A stretch of DNA of 14,643 bases from Promethearchaeota archaeon (GTDB lineage: Archaea; Asgardarchaeota; Thorarchaeia; Thorarchaeales; Thorarchaeaceae): positions 1 through 14,643 of the forward strand of contig WJMJ01000061.1 in the NCBI GenBank assembly GCA_014728035.1, read 5' to 3'. Within the stretch, counting starts at the first letter, position 1, and the number at the start of each line of letters is the position of its first letter. The notes under the pieces were generated by a model that searched no databases, was not told the DNA's origin, and saw nothing but the letters and a program-made list of their open reading frames with translations. Below are positions 1 to 10,567 of this stretch, piece after piece. Both the position numbers and the translations under genes were made by a program.

Positions 1-155
1 GGATGCTCTTTGATGTATTCTATTGGATCACCGAATATATCCTCCTCATCCTCGAATTCTGGAATTTCATCCTGTTCGAGGAAAATCCTATCTCCTACTT
101 CTAGGAGATATTCTTGATCATCTAGGATTACTTTGGATTCCCTAGTTACGATCAT
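1..155 (-). CDS. Hypothetical protein (runs off the window edge) with the shared 27-aa module at its N-terminus; putative head-internal protein
   Basis: Not in the ORF track. Manual translation from ATG at 155: MIVTRESKVILDDQEYLLEVGDRIFLEQDEIPEFEDEEDIFGDPIEYIKEH..., open to position 1. A GAGAGGA Shine-Dalgarno lies just upstream. Residues 2-28 match the module in the three upstream genes. Confidence 0.85.
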   Translation of the reverse strand, partial: MIVTRESKVILDDQEYLLEVGDRIFLEQDEIPEFEDEEDIFGDPIEYIKEH

Positions 156-190
156 AGGAATTTCCTCTCATGTAATAGTTTATGAACAAA

Positions 191-568
191 TCAACCATTT
201 TGCTCGACACATATTTTGTCGCCCTTCTCAAGCATAAATCTCTTGCCATCGAGTTCGACCTCTACATCTTCTGATACCTGCAATAATTGCATGACTTCTT
301 TGCTACCCTCGTCATCAAATTCTGCTTCTTGAGGATCTAATATAGATAACAATGTACTAAATTCCGATGCATGGACTTTTTCTTCATCTGCAATATCCTG
401 CATAACCTTCTTTACACGATCATCTGTAGAAGCATCGGCAATTGCCTCATATAAATGAATCGCTTCATGTTCTGCGGCAATAGATTGCCGTATCGCCCGA
501 TATATTTCTCGTTGATTAAGGGGATGGTCAAATGATGTTATAACGGTGGGGTCAATGAATTGTGCCAT
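191..568 (-). CDS. Short ferritin-like protein (encapsulin-associated Flp/EncFtn, rubrerythrin-like half bundle) with C-terminal 27-aa module
   Basis: RAIRQSIAAEHEAIHLYEAIA...VMQDIADEEKVHASEF...LDPQE...EGSKEV carries the ExxAxxxY and EExxH di-iron ligand pattern of short ferritin-like proteins. The likely start is ATG 568, which overlaps the upstream TAA (TAATG), rather than the track's 589. Confidence 0.85.
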   Translation of the reverse strand: MAQFIDPTVITSFDHPLNQREIYRAIRQSIAAEHEAIHLYEAIADASTDDRVKKVMQDIADEEKVHASEFSTLLSILDPQEAEFDDEGSKEVMQLLQVSEDVEVELDGKRFMLEKGDKICVEQNG

Positions 569-1311
569 TACACACCCTTTACTTCCCACAGTGATTTGAC
601 TCTATTCACTAGATAAGTGCGTATAGCATCGTAAGCCACTGAATATTCCTCATCATTGACATCAATTTCTGGATATAGAGTCTCGACGGCCATCATGCCT
701 TCCATCATGTCTTCCACTGCAGGCATCTCTTCAACTATATCATCAGCCATCTCATTGAGTTCTTTTATTTGATTTTCATCAAACTTGACTTCACCCAATT
801 TGAGGTTATAAGCTTCAGTCTGGACTGGGCATTTTTCACCAGCAGCTTTTCGCCTACCTATATTGGATTTGCTGCGACGATAGCTTCCCTTATATGGTCC
901 AGTACCATCGCGTTTCTTTCTCTGCCCATGTCCTTCTATAACAACCTTATCACCCTTCTCAAGCAGATACTTTTTGCCATCCAATTCAATTTCTGTATCT
1001 TCTGACACCTGATATTGAGATGTCAGTTTGCCGAATCCTAATTTACCAACATCCAACTTTTTCTTACCAACTCCATATTTGATCTTCTTTTTCATCTTAC
1101 CCTCGCTTATCCTCGGAAGTCGACCATAAGATTCTTCCATGTCGCCAAGAAATTCTGAGCCACGCTTTATAATATTCTTAAGATCATATTTAACATTTTT
1201 TAATGCTATTTCATCGCCCTTTTCTAATTCAATCAATATGTCTTGTGCTCTACGAGCCATAATATCTATTGTTGCTCGTGCCAATGCAAGATCTTTAACT
1301 TCTTTGTGCAT
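568..1311 (-). CDS. Hypothetical protein with internal 27-aa module flanked by Lys/Arg-rich segments; putative head core/internal protein
   Basis: ORF track 568..1323. ATG at 1311, just after the upstream TGA with a GGTGG SD, is the more likely start. Module at 931-1011, basic tracts on both sides, acidic C-terminus. Confidence 0.75.
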   Translation of the reverse strand: MHKEVKDLALARATIDIMARRAQDILIELEKGDEIALKNVKYDLKNIIKRGSEFLGDMEESYGRLPRISEGKMKKKIKYGVGKKKLDVGKLGFGKLTSQYQVSEDTEIELDGKKYLLEKGDKVVIEGHGQRKKRDGTGPYKGSYRRSKSNIGRRKAAGEKCPVQTEAYNLKLGEVKFDENQIKELNEMADDIVEEMPAVEDMMEGMMAVETLYPEIDVNDEEYSVAYDAIRTYLVNRVKSLWEVKGV

Positions 1312-1312
1312 T

Positions 1313-2128
1313 TCAAACACCACCTTTAGCAGCCATTGCTGCAGCTGCGCCCATCGTCATCAATTCCTGCGTCTTGTCAGGATCATTCTCATACACAATG
1401 ACATATTTATAAAGGGGTTTTCCAGATGCTGCTCCAAATTCCGCTCTAACTGGGACCATGTCTGGTGGTGCTACCCTATTTGACGTCAATGCTCTTCTGA
1501 TGATACTAATCAATTTATTTGCTGCTGATTGTGTCTTCAACAAGAACGGCGATTTAGCATATGTCACCAATGCATCATCTTTTATCTCATCAAAATCATG
1601 TGACACTTCATGTCCATCATCGTCCTGGGGCTTATCACCTTTATCCTTCTGGATCTTATCACCACGTTGTATTTCCCATATCCATTGCTTAAGCATTTCT
1701 CTCTGGTGCTGGGGGTCACTAACATCCTGGATATCATTTATCTTATCTTGAATCTCATCCTCAGACCACCCACCATACTTCTTTGCGAAACTTGCGATCG
1801 TTTTAAACGGAATCTGGCCTGATTGTCCGACAGCTGGCTGTTCCATTAATATTCTATCGCCAGATTCCAGCATTAGTTTATAATTATCAGCATAGATGGT
1901 TGTATCTTCTAAGATATCTACACCCATACCATCCACAAATATTTCTATAACGTCACAGCCTTCTCTTATCAATATCTCATTGGGACGATGTGTGTGGACC
2001 TCACACGTCTGAATAAGATCACAAAATGCATCAAATATGGTGGGGCATATCAATGACAATTTATCACCATTCTCATATAGATATGCTCCGCCACCAGTCT
2101 TAATGGTCACATCACGAGAGATTATCAT
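1313..2128 (-). CDS. Hypothetical protein with two copies of the 27-aa module; putative head-associated protein
   Basis: 271-aa ORF starting immediately after the protease stop. Module copies at residues 2-28 (IISRDVTIKTGGGAYLYENGDKLSLIC) and 71-97 (DILEDTTIYADNYKLMLESGDRILMEQ). Confidence 0.75.
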   Translation of the reverse strand: MIISRDVTIKTGGGAYLYENGDKLSLICPTIFDAFCDLIQTCEVHTHRPNEILIREGCDVIEIFVDGMGVDILEDTTIYADNYKLMLESGDRILMEQPAVGQSGQIPFKTIASFAKKYGGWSEDEIQDKINDIQDVSDPQHQREMLKQWIWEIQRGDKIQKDKGDKPQDDDGHEVSHDFDEIKDDALVTYAKSPFLLKTQSAANKLISIIRRALTSNRVAPPDMVPVRAEFGAASGKPLYKYVIVYENDPDKTQELMTMGAAAAMAAKGGV

Positions 2129-2129
2129 T

Positions 2130-2813
2130 TTATGCCCTCAATGAACGATGAATTTCCTGGATAAGTTGAGCTTCAGCCTTACTCTTTGCCTCTGAACACA
2201 ATTTGATTTGCTTCGATTCCATCACGCTCAATTGAGCTTCAGTGACTGATGGCTCTGCAACAACGTCCCATGTAACAAAACGAAAACCAGGCTGAACATC
2301 ATATCCTTCATCCATGGTATCTTCTATTGTGACTGGGATCATATCACCCACACCTCTGGATGAGATGCCAATTCGCACATCGGCTTCTACCAATGCTTCA
2401 AGCATCTTTCCGCATGGCATTTCGGTAAGAACTTCCAATTCACCATATACTTTCTTTGACTCCATCCAAAGTTTGGTGACGATATGGCTCACTCTATCCA
2501 AATGTATCTTGGCATCTGAGCTATGGTCAAGTTCGCCTAATACCCTACGATGGTTTACAGATTCGGAAATAGCACCGAGGGCGTCATTAATAATGTCCAT
2601 ACTGTAACGACGTTTATTCTCATTAAAACAGTCAGCCTTCTGGAATACACCAGTAAGACGTAATCTTTTTACTTCCTGTCCCACCTTGTTTTCGACAACC
2701 ACATGTTTGGAATCAAGGATGTCGAATACTTGCTCCTCTTTGAGAAGATGCATACCATTAGGAATTTCACCAGTCTTGGATACTTCACCCCAATTAACAG
2801 CTGTCGTGACCAT
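2130..2813 (-). CDS. Prohead core protein protease, T4 gp21-like (herpes assemblin-fold His-Ser-Asp protease)
   Basis: Family motifs LTGVFQKAD..NENKRRYS, LGELDH, SHI, GISSRGVG, TWDVVAEPS. Strong GGAGG SD upstream. Confidence 0.95.
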   Translation of the reverse strand: MVTTAVNWGEVSKTGEIPNGMHLLKEEQVFDILDSKHVVVENKVGQEVKRLRLTGVFQKADCFNENKRRYSMDIINDALGAISESVNHRRVLGELDHSSDAKIHLDRVSHIVTKLWMESKKVYGELEVLTEMPCGKMLEALVEADVRIGISSRGVGDMIPVTIEDTMDEGYDVQPGFRFVTWDVVAEPSVTEAQLSVMESKQIKLCSEAKSKAEAQLIQEIHRSLRA

Positions 2814-3616: not shown

Positions 3617-4129
3617 TTACTTCACCTCTCTCATAACAACATCCGGGTTGCGTACAGCATAACGATTCATTCGTGTATTGCCAGAAACCTTTATATTGCT
3701 TATGTTGCCATCATTTACGTCATCAATTTTGGCATTACCACAGTCACCCCACAACTCCATAATAAGATGGCCATCAGTAGTATAGCGTTTAATATGCGGC
3801 TTTACCATATACACCATACCAGAATCAACTGATGGATAACGCATAGAATCTGCCATAACCTCGGCAATGCATTCACCTCTACGAAATATTGGCATCCTAA
3901 CCTTTTCCATGATGCTATCTGGAACATCATTAGATGGTACCCATTCTTTGTGATTATTATCAGAATCTTTTAACTTCTTAATATCATCTATGATATCATC
4001 CATCTCATCATATTTGCGATCCCATTCATCTTGTTGTTTTGTATGCCACCAAAATCCAGTTACACATCCGGCCAGTGCACAACACAACAAGAATATTGAT
4101 TTATACGTTATAATCTCTTTAAATTTCAT
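3617..4129 (-). CDS. Membrane-anchored or lipoprotein exported protein, LptC/OstA-like beta-jellyroll (tentative)
   Basis: N-terminal hydrophobic segment containing a LAGC lipobox (Cys22), a charged linker, then a beta-rich domain with the LptC-like pattern KPHIKRYTTDG..IMELWGDCG...IKVSGNTRM. The ORF is solid; the product is tentative. Confidence 0.45.
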   Translation of the reverse strand: MKFKEIITYKSIFLLCCALAGCVTGFWWHTKQQDEWDRKYDEMDDIIDDIKKLKDSDNNHKEWVPSNDVPDSIMEKVRMPIFRRGECIAEVMADSMRYPSVDSGMVYMVKPHIKRYTTDGHLIMELWGDCGNAKIDDVNDGNISNIKVSGNTRMNRYAVRNPDVVMREVK

Positions 4130-5042
4130 CGTTCTCCAATCTAATCATCCATTCAGGAAGTTCTTTACATTGAAATCCGGCAGCACCCGCATGACCACCG
4201 CCACCCATATCTGATGCCAATTGACCAAGATGTACATCTAAATCATCACGAGCTTTATACAAGCTCACAGTGTATTGATTACCATCAAAATAAAATGTTA
4301 CCCAAACATCATATCCCTTATTCTCGCAGCTTTTGAATGCAAATGAATTAATCAAACCACAATTCAACGCCTTACCACGCAAAACGACACTAGATCTAGA
4401 TGTGGGCACATTAACATCAAAACCATGGTGTGATAATTTACTTTCCATTTGCTTTTGATCAAATGACCTAGCTGCACGACCCTGAATCATAAGCTGCCCC
4501 ATTGCCTCTCTACTTCTATCGTCATTGGAAAGCAGCCTCATCCAATATTCACTGGTTGGGTTATATTCTATCCCCGTAGACTTTGCTGCCCATACGAAGT
4601 CTAATACTGTAGTGTCATTATTATGTGTCCATGTATCCCATTTGTCAACCAATGTAACTGCTAATGATGGTTTTCCATCAAAAAGAAAATCATGAGCCAA
4701 CATAGATGCACTTGGCAAATCGTCAGATAAAGATCCCTTTGGCAATTCACCATCAAACAAATCAACCACCTTGTCTATATTAGTTTGATGGTGATCAATC
4801 CATATAATATTATCCTTATCCGTCACGCATAATAACGATTCAAAGTCATCACGCGATGGGGTAAAATCTACTAGATATATAATATCATCTTCATCCACAT
4901 CATCAACTTGAATACCATCCTTATAGTCTACTGGCATACAGTCTACCTCTAAATCAGTATCTAATTCTCTCAACAATTTCAGAACAATCGCTGCACTACA
5001 TGATCCATCCAAATCACAATGATAAAATATATGATTTTTCAT
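4119..5042 (-). CDS. DHH/DHHA1 family phosphoesterase (NrnB-like oligoribonuclease)
   Basis: Motifs FYHCDLDG, LVDF, WIDHH, SAS, and DHHA1 motifs YTVSLY and GGGGHAGAAGF. Confidence 0.93.
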   Translation of the reverse strand: MKNHIFYHCDLDGSCSAAIVLKLLRELDTDLEVDCMPVDYKDGIQVDDVDEDDIIYLVDFTPSRDDFESLLCVTDKDNIIWIDHHQTNIDKVVDLFDGELPKGSLSDDLPSASMLAHDFLFDGKPSLAVTLVDKWDTWTHNNDTTVLDFVWAAKSTGIEYNPTSEYWMRLLSNDDRSREAMGQLMIQGRAARSFDQKQMESKLSHHGFDVNVPTSRSSVVLRGKALNCGLINSFAFKSCENKGYDVWVTFYFDGNQYTVSLYKARDDLDVHLGQLASDMGGGGHAGAAGFQCKELPEWMIRLENDEI

Positions 5043-5590
5043 TTTAATTCTCCCATTGGAATAATTTCGGTAACCCCAAGATCGGGTATAAAAGAGTATG
5101 CAACAGCAACCACTTTCCCATTAGATACATTGATAACGGGTGAGCCACTCATACCTGGCTCTATTAATGCACTTGTGGCAATTCTAGTTAATATCTTACC
5201 ACGTTTAATTTGATATCTTGCAACACCATTGTCTACCGCATATCCAATTATTACAATATCCATGCCCCTACGAATATAATTATCAACTGGTATTCGTGAC
5301 AATTCAAACGGAATGTGGTCTACACATATAGATGCTGCATCATATCCAAATTTATTATAATTTCTGATATGTATAGCATAATTATTTATAAATAAATTGT
5401 TTAATGTATCACTAGGTAAAACATGTCGTGCAGTAATGATGGTATTATTGTTGGTTGCAAATGCAGTGCCAATAATGTGGTCATTATGTCTTAATATTCC
5501 CACGGATTGCGGATTTATACAAACAGGTTGTTTATGCTGACCACATCCACACATAAACAACATAATTATACATACATATTTATTGAACAT
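5039..5590 (-). CDS. Trypsin-like (S1) serine protease with signal/lipoprotein-like N-terminus
   Basis: GTAFA..IITARHV (His), DAASI (Asp), PGMSGSPV (Ser). N-terminus MFNKYVCIIMLFMCGC. ATG 5590 is preferred over the track's TTG at 5599. Confidence 0.85.
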   Translation of the reverse strand: MFNKYVCIIMLFMCGCGQHKQPVCINPQSVGILRHNDHIIGTAFATNNNTIITARHVLPSDTLNNLFINNYAIHIRNYNKFGYDAASICVDHIPFELSRIPVDNYIRRGMDIVIIGYAVDNGVARYQIKRGKILTRIATSALIEPGMSGSPVINVSNGKVVAVAYSFIPDLGVTEIIPMGELK

Positions 5591-5739
5591 TATCAGCAAA
5601 TTCCATCAGAACCACTATGATGAAATACTTGCCGCTCCATTTATATTGTGTATCACAGCTTCCACCACCCTGTCATGATTCATAACCATCAGCACCATCA
5701 CTATGCATAAATATTGCCGCTTTCACTATTAATGTATGT

Positions 5740-7867: not shown

Positions 7868-10567
7868 CTACTTCATCTTGCGGAAGGGACCCTTGCCAAA
7901 CTTAGGCTTGGTTGATTTTGCAGGTGCTTTAACTGTAGTTGAGGACGGGTTTGACATTTTCTTCACAGACGGTTTCTGATTCTTAGAAGAGCCATCCGCC
8001 CATTTACGAGGTGCATCATCATTTTTATATGAAGACTTGGCAGGATCCATTACGTCATTGTCTTCTATAACTGCTTCCTCATCAGACGTTTTCGATTCTT
8101 CAACTTCTTCCTCGTCCTCTTCCATCTCGACTTCACCAACATCCATTTCTACTTCACCAATATCCATCCCTTCATCAGGTGATTCAATTGGTGGCATGGG
8201 CGGGACATGCTCTTCATCGTCCATGTTGGCAAATACTGCATCAATTGCAGACGAAAGATTATCCTCATCTGACACCACCACTGCGACTTCCTCATTCTTG
8301 GTGGACTTATCCTTGATTAAATCATATACACTAGCCCAGAATTCATTGTCGTCCTTATTGCTATTCACCGCAAACATTACCATGCCACGACCTTCTTCAT
8401 TGGTATTATCAAAGAATTTTGCAACATCGTGCGGTGTAGTTTGATCTTCAAGAGACTTTTGAGTACTAAGATCCATACGCTCTCTAAGATCACCCTTTTC
8501 AACTTTATCAGGCCAATCACCCTCTTCCTTCATAAGTGACTTCTTGGTTGTTGTGGGCCTCGTTCTTTTGCGTGCATTAGTTGGTGATTTGCGCTGGGCT
8601 TCTGATACCGCATTGCCATCGCTTTCTTTATCCTCACAGTGCTCTCCATCTTCACATTCTTCTTCGCCATCTTCGCCATCTTCTGCATCGTCTGAATCAG
8701 ATTCTGAATCATCACCTTCGTTCACCAATGCACCATATTGCTCAGCAATCTCAGCAATATTATCATCATATGAATATGGATCATCAGCACTCTCTTCAAT
8801 ACTGGGCATTAGAGTTCTAAACTGCTCCGCAAGAACGTCTTCATTGAGTGCCTCGCAGCGTGCGATATATCGATCAATGTCTTCTGCCACCTTACCAATA
8901 CCATGCGTGGCAATGTAAACATTAATTGATTCACACCACGTTGAGAATTCTTCCTTCAAAGCATCCTTATCCATACTCTCAACTGGTGTCATTGGTTTGG
9001 ATATATCTTCTGCAGCTGCTAATTCTTCCTCTTCCTCCTCTTCCTCTTCACCACCAAATTCCAAATCTAGATCACTATCTATCTCTTCCTCTTCACCTTC
9101 AGCGCCCTCAATTCCCTCATCACCAAGATCTTCACCACCGGTTTCCAGTTCCCCCAAATCAGGTTCGAGATCTAATCCCGGCTCGCCCAAATCGGGTATG
9201 CCGCCGCCACCGCCACCAAGATCTGGCTCCTCAATATCGCCAACTTCACCCATGCCTTCCTCGCCAGCACCGATTGCATCAAAATCAATTTCTGGTGTGG
9301 CCCCTGCTTGATCAAAACTTCCAAGATCAATGATGGAGCTATCTAGTGAGGCAAGTAACTCAGCTGCTTCAGACATGGCAGAATCATCGGCAGTGTCCTC
9401 ATTGGCCAAACGAGCCATAAGCTCATCAACCTGTAACACTGATTCATCATCACCACCAACTTCGTTCTCCAAAGTATTGCGAATTACGGACAACGAATTT
9501 AGAAATGCCTTTCTCTGAACATCCCTATCTTCAGTCATCACGTCCTGTAGGAATTTCATATAATCATCTTCGAAGTTATTTGCGGTGCGAAGTTTGTCCA
9601 CGCCCTCCAGGATAGGAGCACTACCGGCCATCTTGGCCGTCTTACCCCACGCTTCCAAGATATCATTCTTGTTGACACGCAAGTTACTACGGAATAATGT
9701 CAGAGCGGTGTGCTCACATAATACTGGATTATAATTGTTCTGTGTTGCCAAAGCATTGGAAACCAAATCTCTCATCTCATTTAGATTCAGCATGCAAAAT
9801 TCCTGATATTCACCAAGAAATTTTGCAGATTCGGTCACAGCTTCCTTGAGCTTGTCTTGGGAGACCAGCCCAGCCACATTCTTGCAGAATTTCTGGAAAG
9901 AAGTTGATTGGTATGCAGATTCAGCGACCAACCGCATCTTCTTGGCGATGAGCCGTCTACGATCCATTTCAGTGATGGGCAGTTTAATTTCAGTGCCATC
10001 ATGTAGGCTGGCGGATACAATATTACCATCCTTAACCTCGACCTTATCAGACAGGGCTTCAAGTATGGTGTTGATTATTTTGGCTTTATTATCTTCCGAT
10101 ACAACATCCTCAGCAATATTGATGCGACGTCGCATATTGTCCCTTGTTACCACATAGCCCTCATTAGTGGCTACTGTGGGACGGAAACGGCACATTTCCA
10201 GCTTCTTAAATGCAGATTCCGCTGACTTATCATTCTCTTCAGCTATTGCATCAATCAGATCACAGCATGCATTAGAGAAGACATGGCCCTTCTTCGACTC
10301 CTTGATCTGCACTTTGGAAATATCTGTGAGATGCACTTTGCCATTCTTTTTGGTGCGATCATGCTTGGCCATATAATATGACCCATTATCGACATCCTCA
10401 AATAACAAACTGTTGTTGTGCAAGGAGACTAGCCGATAATTCCGCCCAGCCCGTTCGCCCATCTTGCCAACCAGACCCTCAAACATAGTAATATTACTCT
10501 GGGCACCTTCATTGATGAACTTGATCACTTTACGTGCGTCTAATGTGACGGTTTTACTCATAGCCAT
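7868..10567 (-). CDS. Large acidic protein, putative prohead core/scaffold-like protein
   Basis: 899 aa: helical N-terminal half, very acidic low-complexity D/E/G-rich C-terminal half, basic tail. Many [ILV]-x-E tripeptides of the type cut by gp21-like proteases. AGGAG spacing favours the second ATG (10561). Function is inferred. Confidence 0.55.
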   Translation of the reverse strand: MAMSKTVTLDARKVIKFINEGAQSNITMFEGLVGKMGERAGRNYRLVSLHNNSLLFEDVDNGSYYMAKHDRTKKNGKVHLTDISKVQIKESKKGHVFSNACCDLIDAIAEENDKSAESAFKKLEMCRFRPTVATNEGYVVTRDNMRRRINIAEDVVSEDNKAKIINTILEALSDKVEVKDGNIVSASLHDGTEIKLPITEMDRRRLIAKKMRLVAESAYQSTSFQKFCKNVAGLVSQDKLKEAVTESAKFLGEYQEFCMLNLNEMRDLVSNALATQNNYNPVLCEHTALTLFRSNLRVNKNDILEAWGKTAKMAGSAPILEGVDKLRTANNFEDDYMKFLQDVMTEDRDVQRKAFLNSLSVIRNTLENEVGGDDESVLQVDELMARLANEDTADDSAMSEAAELLASLDSSIIDLGSFDQAGATPEIDFDAIGAGEEGMGEVGDIEEPDLGGGGGGIPDLGEPGLDLEPDLGELETGGEDLGDEGIEGAEGEEEEIDSDLDLEFGGEEEEEEEEELAAAEDISKPMTPVESMDKDALKEEFSTWCESINVYIATHGIGKVAEDIDRYIARCEALNEDVLAEQFRTLMPSIEESADDPYSYDDNIAEIAEQYGALVNEGDDSESDSDDAEDGEDGEEECEDGEHCEDKESDGNAVSEAQRKSPTNARKRTRPTTTKKSLMKEEGDWPDKVEKGDLRERMDLSTQKSLEDQTTPHDVAKFFDNTNEEGRGMVMFAVNSNKDDNEFWASVYDLIKDKSTKNEEVAVVVSDEDNLSSAIDAVFANMDDEEHVPPMPPIESPDEGMDIGEVEMDVGEVEMEEDEEEVEESKTSDEEAVIEDNDVMDPAKSSYKNDDAPRKWADGSSKNQKPSVKKMSNPSSTTVKAPAKSTKPKFGKGPFRKMK

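Follow-up and report, generated by a model that had tools for sequence, protein, structure and literature searches.

The 14,643-nucleotide (nt) stretch of DNA analyzed here (the window) makes up the entire contig C27 (WJMJ01000061.1) of a 4.33-Mb assembly in 173 contigs that is assigned to a Promethearchaeota archaeon. Every gene from position 10567 of the window down to position 1 lies on the minus strand, and among these is the sole S77-family protease gene of the assembly (2130..2813). Directly downstream of it lie four genes whose products carry a module of 27 amino acids (aa), and it is this module, and the proteins that bear it, with which we are concerned. A preliminary description of the DNA had listed five gapless copies of the module; the coordinates and translations of all five, each on the minus strand, proved to be exactly as given (Table 1). 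Compared pairwise, the copies share 7–18 of 27 aa and 34–56 of 81 nt; the nearest pair (18/27 aa and 56/81 nt) agrees with the earlier hand count, and the motif ExGD[KR] is unchanged in all five. The module had also been portrayed as varying in position among proteins that share nothing else. Indeed, we find it placed N-terminally, internally and C-terminally on unrelated proteins. The four proteins of the window share nothing else with one another, but the product of open reading frame (ORF) 3–155 has paralogs, the family numbering at least six genes.

Table 1. Genes and module copies at the protease end of the window.
Feature	Position	Strand	Basis and remarks
Paralog-family gene, 5' part: N-terminal module, acidic linker, repeat domain	3..155	-	Cut short by the contig end
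Module copy, N-terminal, of the paralog-family type that recurs almost unchanged in at least six genes of the assembly	72..152	-	Translation, hidden Markov model (HMM)
Encapsulated-ferritin-like protein, 125 aa, with the module as its C-terminus	191..568	-	ATG 568 overlaps the upstream stop (TAATG)
Module copy, C-terminal on the ferritin	200..280	-	Translation, HMM
Protein of ~247 aa with internal module	568..1311	-	Likely start ATG 1311, 1 nt past the upstream stop; alternative GTG 1323
Module copy, internal in the ~247-aa protein, end V-I-E-G	931..1011	-	Translation, HMM
271-aa protein: two modules in the N-terminal 100 residues, helical region, low-complexity linker, conserved C-terminal domain	1313..2128	-	
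Module copy, residues 71–97 of the 271-aa protein, end L-M-E-Q	1838..1918	-	Translation, HMM
Module copy, residues 2–28 of the 271-aa protein, most diverged, end S-L-I-C without Glu	2045..2125	-	HMM
Prohead maturation protease, T4 gp21 type, 227 aa	2130..2813	-	Pfam Peptidase_S77 4e-19; phrog_207 1.6e-40; opens the coupled run

Across the run that the protease gene opens, the spacers measure −1 to 33 nt: the ATG of the 271-aa gene lies 1 nt past the protease stop, and the ferritin gene is followed after 33 nt by the paralog gene, which leaves the contig. The latter gene probably continues on contig C131 and is there followed by scaffold-like and gp23-like capsid genes. In particular, after its paralog gene C131 carries a gene for a 250-aa coiled-coil protein, which we call scaffold-like solely from its place and its composition; the Gp23-family major capsid gene (Pfam, 2.2e-75) comes next. 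The likely order is protease, two-module protein, internal-module protein, encapsulated ferritin (EncFtn) with module, paralog, scaffold-like protein and capsid protein, the join between C27 and C131 lying within a repeat and not being unique. The paralog family itself comprises at least six genes (window 3–155; C118 1429–2049 and 4994–5623; C158 38–571; C131 1–756; C160 18–293), each built of a near-identical module, an acidic D-E-I-P-E-F-E-D linker and 4–7 repeats of ~25 aa with the pattern W-A-Y-x-Y-A...G-R-W-P-E-A-E, for which Pfam returned weak echoes only (DUF982 and DUF4116). The assembly is broken within this repeat at five contig ends (C27, C118, C131, C158 and C160).

The source of the window is a distant, uncultured T4-like virus whose contigs were placed in the bin of a cellular genome. 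Identity of the protease to proteins of cultured phages does not exceed 37%, the top matches being from cyanophages and enterobacterial T4-like phages, and with the protease as query we found no relatives among the IMG/VR loci. Marker genes put the assembly at 97.9% complete with 8.5% contamination; binning with a Thorarchaeota genome is no evidence of the host of the virus. A few genes upstream of the protease gene, at 4119–5599 of the window, are genes for a DHH phosphoesterase (phrog_4771, 1e-27) and a trypsin-like peptidase (Trypsin_2, 1.7e-10), an odd pairing for a structural region.

An HMM was built from the five copies of the window and run to convergence against all six-frame ORFs of the assembly. 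Domain E-values of 1e-11 to 1e-15 were obtained, and the converged set has 18 copies in 17 ORFs (1e-8 to 1e-15). These ORFs lie on contigs C27, C118, C131, C158, C160, C70 and C74; the remaining ~4.1 Mb of the assembly, searched in the same six-frame ORFs, contained no module. The E-values, together with the restriction to seven viral contigs, indicate that the copies are not chance matches. Contigs C27 and C131 overlap by 134 nt, and C118 and C160 by 141 nt, in both cases inside the repeat, and the two corresponding ORF pairs are probably single genes cut by assembly breaks, which brings the total to ~16 genes. C118 and C160 share exactly 141 nt at both end pairs, which would give a 32-kb loop in the graph and is probably a repeat artefact. 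Where a pair of copies agrees in a residue, the codons differ in 59% of cases, and the invariant Gly of the module is encoded by GGA, GGC, GGT and GGG. That the residues are the same and the codons are not argues for selection on the protein rather than for a DNA repeat.

To ask how widely the module occurs, 1.84 billion representative proteins were searched exhaustively with the profile (E <= 1e-3), and the module was found in 184 protein clusters of public metagenomes. Its consensus reads MKKF-TVSEDTEVVLDGKKYLLEKGDKIVIE. The residues of L-L-E-x-G-D at positions 16–18 and 20–21 are 92–100% conserved, and conservation drops sharply past position 25. Among 154 clean copies, 107 are N-terminal (that is, begin within the first 12 residues), 33 internal and 14 C-terminal. 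The carriers are mostly proteins of 50–230 aa without a known family; recognizable partners are DUF3008 (in six), rubrerythrin/EncFtn, DUF6582, DUF5661 and one protein resembling a deoxynucleoside monophosphate (dNMP) kinase. A degenerate DNA pattern that describes the module core hit 3 IMG/VR loci and 40 metagenome loci, ~25 of which hold true copies; most of these that are of sufficient length contain further genes homologous to genes of this virus, and several short loci share the module alone. The same pattern found true cupin proteins only, and no module, in GTDB species-representative genomes, and tblastn with a typical tag (P0012, residues 1–45) and with a DUF3008 carrier had no match in 50,697 phage records. 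A search of the ESM Atlas with P0012 gave no usable match. The GTDB and cultured-phage results lead us to conclude that the module is specific to one uncultured viral clade. Within this clade its distribution is patchy: when 80 IMG/VR loci with capsid genes 69–79% identical were scanned over ±10 kb, the module occurred near the capsid gene only in the nearest relatives, L011 and, weakly, L010; it was found separately in L091 (77%).

It had been expected that matches to the profile would be tied to head genes, and this holds in part: it holds for the protease-to-capsid run, which in this virus contains five copies, and for clusters at neck genes, but not for four genes that lie among metabolic genes. 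In particular, six module genes on C118 adjoin a gp13-like neck gene that is 66% identical to the Phage_T4_gp13 gene of locus L097, and one copy on C158 lies upstream of gp15-like and sheath genes. Related loci show similar arrangements. Directly downstream of a 77% identical capsid gene, L091/L101 has three genes with N-terminal modules. In L089/L121 a two-module ortholog of the 271-aa protein (P0009) is followed by a gene that likewise has an internal module, and in L110 an EncFtn-module gene precedes a gene with an N-terminal module. L097 has a DUF3008-plus-module gene between its sheath and tube genes. Two late-promoter candidates were also considered. CAAATATA occurs ~30 nt ahead of both the protease gene and the scaffold-like gene, but its enrichment in viral contigs is no more than 2-fold; for the T4 late-promoter octamer, TATAAATA, the enrichment is 8-fold (1.81 versus 0.23 per 10 kb in viral contigs and the rest, respectively). 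Neither consistently precedes module genes, and their placement therefore provides no evidence on timing.

Other genes are interspersed in these neighborhoods. A 254-aa DUF7873 protein (Pfam, 3.5e-75) is encoded among the module genes of C118 (3737–4501), and a gene for a protein that also has 254 aa lies at 4368–5132 of L091 among the L091/L092 module genes past the capsid gene. Large genes with repeated helix-turn-helix (HTH) motifs are found at C118 5611–7485, 8178–9734 and 9724–10212, C131 3459–5630, C160 496–2256 and 3012–4898, and C158 5068–7182. Two of these were scanned and showed a nuclease-type domain as well: C131 3459–5630 has a TnsA-like domain above the Pfam cut-off and C118 5611–7485 a weak REase_MTES_1575 match below it. 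Lying between structural genes, the HTH-repeat genes look like a mobile, homing-endonuclease-like family.

Among the carriers in the protease run, the 125-aa ferritin is the most informative. It matches Pfam Rubrerythrin (1.7e-7) and EncFtn-like (2.6e-6, 27.6 bits against a cut-off of 27), and its matches in the PDB include EncFtn of Pyrococcus furiosus (5n5e, 2e-15), the P. furiosus encapsulin–EncFtn fusion (2e0z, 2.5e-14) and EncC/EncB of Myxococcus xanthus (7s5c and 7s8t; 7s8t, 8e-11). By these matches the carrier classes as a true encapsulated ferritin, a known family of encapsulin cargo; its nearest solved relative is archaeal (P. furiosus). The characterized ones among these PDB relatives are either cargo of, or fused to, encapsulin shells with the HK97 fold, and to our knowledge the EncFtn cargo family has been found only inside such shells. 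The PDB alignment stops where the module starts, which is also where the shell fusion begins in 2e0z, and only two residues follow the module at the C-terminus of the ferritin. A loading peptide sits at this same place. In the two relatives P0118 and P0119, EncFtn is followed by the module and then by a further domain. No other EncFtn gene is present in the assembly, and no Linocin_M18 (PF04454) encapsulin gene was found in its 4.33 Mb, although the controls matched, which leaves the gp23-type capsid, with its HK97 fold, as the only shell on offer. A literature search found no report of a phage EncFtn. A ferritin that bears the tag and is encoded in a head operon is the strongest single argument that the module has to do with loading of the head.

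The preliminary description had taken the module to be small, beta-rich and portable, and structure prediction together with the unrelated carriers supports this. An AlphaFold2 model of the tag alone, made from an alignment of 39 sequences, has a predicted local distance difference test (pLDDT) score of 90 and consists of strands at residues 2–5, 10–14, 17–21 and 26–29 followed by a disordered tail. Consensus positions 8–10 and 15–17 are all hydrophobic. With middle strands that are hydrophobic on both faces, we infer that the module must pair with a copy of itself or dock on a partner. The module is, as modeled, probably unable to stand alone, which is consistent with the earlier idea that it serves docking or oligomerization. 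The full 271-aa protein was predicted at pLDDT 57, with ~77 in the module regions, both of which form a hairpin-plus-strand unit, and a model of such poor quality shows no packing of the two modules on each other. P0009, P0022 and P0003 are orthologs of this protein that retain both the two modules and the C-terminal domain.

The module matches no known domain of unrelated function in Pfam, PHROGs, the PDB or fold searches, and neither Pfam nor PHROGs had a family that covers it on the carriers of this virus or on 143 metagenomic carriers. The C-terminal hairpin of GroES (E 0.7) and uL23 (E 0.9), which appeared in a profile search of PDB sequences, were treated as chance matches. Searches of the module model with Foldseek and VIA-align gave nothing significant, as expected at ~30 residues. 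For this very small model the best Foldseek match was the cupin 3h50 (E 2.0; template-modeling score on the query, TMq, 0.47), and the best, non-significant rows were cupins (TM 0.47–0.52, root-mean-square deviation 2.1–2.8 over 25–28 residues, 25–37% identity); the best VIA-align match had a Z of 2.5, in rows that mix SH3 domains, cupins and vault repeats. One carrier matched Cupin_3 below the threshold (E 0.069), and no Pfam cupin family matched above threshold among the module carriers. The resemblance extends to sequence: cupin barrels (Cupin_2/Cupin_3), in the strands around the second motif of HTH-cupin regulators, share with the module the pattern v-x-x-x-x-x-E-v-x-v-D-G-x-x-Y-L-L-E-x-G-D. 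Unlike a cupin domain of 70–100 aa, however, the module has four strands in 27–30 aa and no His/Glu metal ligands (at none of the 27 positions does His rank with the six most frequent residues), and cupins score 14–25 bits on the module profile as compared with 35–59 for true copies. In appearance the module is thus the middle of a cupin barrel, four strands without the histidine motifs, a likeness in which descent and convergence are indistinguishable. All false positives of the DNA pattern appear to be HTH-cupin regulators with D-G-[KE]-K-Y-L-L-E-x-G-D-S in common with the module. Nine loci (L103, L106, L113, L114, L124, L127, L142, L160 and L169) encode bacterial cupin-type proteins of 190–320 aa, from Anaerolineales, Acidobacteriaceae and others, which share D-G-[KEQ]-K-Y-L-L-E-x-G-D-S followed by the cupin P-H motif. 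Taken as HTH-cupin regulators from motif and size, they are the nearest cellular look-alikes in sequence.

Next to the fold, the glutamates of the module bear on its possible fate. Four of the five window copies had been said to end in [ILV]-x-E, the type of site that gp21 cuts; by the strict rule only two of these ends (V-I-E and L-M-E) do so, P3 being Phe or Cys in the remaining ones. Across all copies, Glu occupies position 26 or 27 in 68%, as compared with 16% of control windows from the same proteins, and a strict [ILV]-x-E at the module end occurs in 56% as compared with 3.4%. This enrichment is in part a consequence of the hydrophobic strand itself. Further sites of the [ILV]-x-E type lie within the consensus (V-S-E at 2–4 and L-L-E at 16–18). 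The capsid propeptide of the clade (C131 1650–1760; L009–L011 and L091) contains I-[ST]-E-D and L-L-L-E-A, which are tripeptides of the same types as V-S-E-D and L-L-E-[KA] within the module, and the tripeptides common to both may, judging by this likeness, be the preferred sites of the protease. The L-F-E-D of the capsid protein we place at the maturation cut, by reference to the cleavage site of T4 gp23. The module profile scores ~1 bit against the N-terminus of the capsid protein; only the tripeptide motifs are in common. By analogy, the Glu sites would fit a protease that dismantles the tag, as enzymes of the gp21 family do with propeptides (PMC10052503).

A second, shorter type of leader has the shape M-[KR]-[LM]-x-x-[IL]-x-E and occurs in C152 (298–7775) on genes for an aldo/keto-reductase-like protein, a peptidase-like protein and topoisomerase IB. 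C152 is placed with this virus only by its viral-type topoisomerase IB, which is also found in L096 beside a module gene. The start of the module consensus, M-K-K-F-T-V-S-E, has the same shape as these leaders. Either the module is an extended short leader, or the virus uses tags of both kinds, or capsid targeting belongs to the short leader and the module is otherwise employed.

We favor, with moderate confidence, the reading that the module is a docking tag for loading proteins into the head, where it is trimmed by the protease. In this scheme a virus-specific, self-folding tag of ~27–30 residues and four short beta strands would act as a portable address by which proteins with nothing else in common reach the prohead core while a T4-like giant virus assembles it. 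Its sheet would pack against the sheet of a second module or against a core or scaffold protein, and a candidate hub is the two-module protein, whose gene comes right after that of the protease. Once assembly is complete, the protease of gp21 type would cut at the Glu of [ILV]-x-E sites (V-S-E, L-L-E and the end of the last strand), and cutting would free or trim the cargo. Several lines of evidence support this reading. The first is the coupling of module genes from protease to capsid, their clustering at neck genes and the retention of this layout in close relatives. The bias toward the N-terminus (107/154) is that of most known substrates of the gp21 family, which have N-terminal propeptides (PMC10052503), and diverse small carriers that share only the tag recall the internal proteins of T4 (PMC3012670). 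The end of conservation at position 25 coincides with the Glu enrichment and with the tripeptides of the capsid propeptide. In addition, the relatives of the ferritin are encapsulin cargo or encapsulin fusions, in an assembly with no encapsulin gene, and the module is restricted to the clade, without a match in GTDB representatives or cultured phages.

The head-loading reading was proposed in the preliminary description, and part of it is supported: the portable module itself, a virus that has the protease, the concentration in the operon, the absence of a known domain and a carrier that is a genuine encapsulated ferritin. What fits poorly is the set of copies at metabolic genes and the loss of the terminal Glu from about one third of copies, and these are not the only observations that weigh against it. 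Four of the ~16 genes adjoin ribonucleotide reductase, ThyX/dCMP-deaminase-type or small uncharacterized genes, some copies of relatives lie beside topoisomerase IB or helicase genes, and one is on the dNMP-kinase-like protein. The first two genes past the protease in L097 have no module, and relatives whose capsid protein is 69–75% identical have none in the 10 kb around the capsid gene. Ahead of C-terminal copies there is no obvious Glu-type site, and a beta domain that the model folds with confidence is expected to be a poor protease substrate unless unfolded. Moreover, the short leaders of C152 are nearer to the T4 tag than is the module, and could be the real capsid-targeting tag. Genes for the internal proteins of T4 are also scattered, so that the copies at metabolic genes weaken the link to the head without breaking it.

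A more specific version of head loading, which we offer only tentatively, takes the cupin likeness at face value. The module would here be one half of a split, cupin-like barrel, a connector by which tagged proteins, the ferritin included, pair with a tagged core protein and enter the prohead. The DNA-filled capsid would then be a compartment of the encapsulin kind, the tag would work at any position in the chain and the head protease would dismantle it.

The same pairing may have nothing to do with the capsid. That two half-barrels form a cupin-like sandwich and, inside the infected cell, simply join proteins that carry the module is possible, if rather doubtful as the whole explanation. Such a general pairing domain agrees with strands 2 and 3 being hydrophobic on both faces in a confidently predicted fold, with the cupin-like sequence and the weak cupin rows of the structural searches, with tandem pairs and placement anywhere in a chain, and with the copies amid metabolic and replication genes, one of them on the dNMP-kinase-like protein. 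It leaves unexplained, however, why module genes are concentrated between protease and capsid and at the neck, why 107 of 154 copies are N-terminal, why conservation ends sharply next to a Glu, and why a ferritin that depends on a shell should carry the tag. Pairing and head loading are, in any case, compatible with each other.

It is less probable, and in our view unlikely, that the module is an address tag with another destination. Carriers might then decorate the capsid from outside, go to the neck or tail or to a viral compartment, or meet a common target in the host, for example a chaperonin. The cluster between gp13-like and gp15-like neck genes and the DUF3008-plus-module gene between the sheath and tube genes of L097 would suit the neck or tail. 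For a chaperonin one could point to the weak match of the module profile to the C-terminal hairpin of GroES (E 0.7), a likeness that is non-significant and needs a gap, and to the statement that T4 propeptides recruit chaperonins too (PMC10052503). The carriers, however, are small and have no recognizable fiber or receptor-binding domain, the relatives of the ferritin work inside shells, and Glu sites at the end of the tag suit an internal protease.

Finally, the idea that the copies are functionless, either decayed remnants of cupins, for which one can cite the D-G-[KE]-K-Y-L-L-E-x-G-D-S that true HTH-cupin regulators have in common with the module and their 14–25 bits on the profile, or a DNA repeat or assembly artefact, as near-identical paralog-type copies at assembly breaks might suggest, is barely credible and largely refuted, since no copy retains the rest of the cupin or its His motifs, the module scores 35–59 bits where cupins score 14–25, the same 25 positions are kept across 184 clusters, 59% of identical residues have different codons and a fold prediction based on covariation reaches pLDDT 90.

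If the module is a head-loading tag, its closest known counterpart is the capsid targeting sequence (CTS) of T4, a linear peptide of ~10 residues at the extreme N-terminus whose end is a gp21 cut site, [LI]-x-Glu. The prohead protease gp21 cleaves the CTS from the internal proteins IPI, IPII and IPIII and from Alt (PMC3012670; Mullaney and Black 1996, as cited in PMC10052503). As in T4, the tag is found on unrelated, fast-evolving small proteins of a virus with a gp21-type protease and a gp23-type capsid, and the module is acidic, lies at the extreme N-terminus in 107 of 154 copies and is followed by a candidate Glu-type cut site in about two thirds; its M-K-K-F-T-V-S-E fits the M-K-x-x-x-[ILV]-x-E of short T4-like leaders. 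In contrast to the CTS, the module is three times longer, with 25–27 conserved positions and a predicted four-stranded sheet, it also occurs internally (33 copies), C-terminally (14) and in tandem, one third of copies lack the terminal Glu, and it is not confined to the neighborhoods of head genes.

The loading of encapsulins offers a second comparison. Here the EncFtn cargo (E 2e-15) carries a C-terminal tag where the loading peptide or the shell fusion starts, and the available shell is of the gp23 family, with the HK97 fold, as in encapsulins. In sequence the module is, as far as we can judge, unlike the short loading peptides of encapsulins. There is, in contrast to encapsulin systems, no Linocin_M18 shell, the module is followed by a further domain in P0118 and P0119, and the shell would be a head filled with DNA. 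A third comparison is with giant phages, where the proteases SPN3US gp245 and phiKZ gp175 strip N-terminal propeptides of 20–254 residues from many head and ejection proteins, and where enzymes of the gp21 family cut after x-x-E, often at several sites per propeptide (PMC10052503). The motif there is A-x-E, and the cleavages in those phages are proven by mass spectrometry. We know of no common sequence module among these propeptides.

That diverse proteins of a T4-like phage can carry one and the same tag is already known from T4. What is new is a module that is folded, cupin-like and independent of position, its restriction to one clade, and its presence on an encapsulated ferritin. If the tag loads heads, it would be a second, structurally different way of doing what the targeting sequence of 10 residues does in T4, and its tolerance of N-terminal, internal and C-terminal placement would be convenient for engineering phage particles that carry cargo. 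Were the split half-barrel version of head loading true, it would amount to a new principle of head loading, in which a folded pairing domain replaces a linear signal peptide. Even if the module is a pairing domain only, it would still be an undescribed, virus-restricted family of mini-domains with a clear profile. The ferritin carrier would, if the head-loading reading is true, be the first hint, as far as we know, of a virus head that acts as an iron-handling encapsulin. Proteins delivered with the virion are rich in functions of anti-defense and host takeover, and, if the tag loads heads, the ~16 proteins found here and those of the ~180 metagenome clusters would be candidates for virion-delivered proteins.

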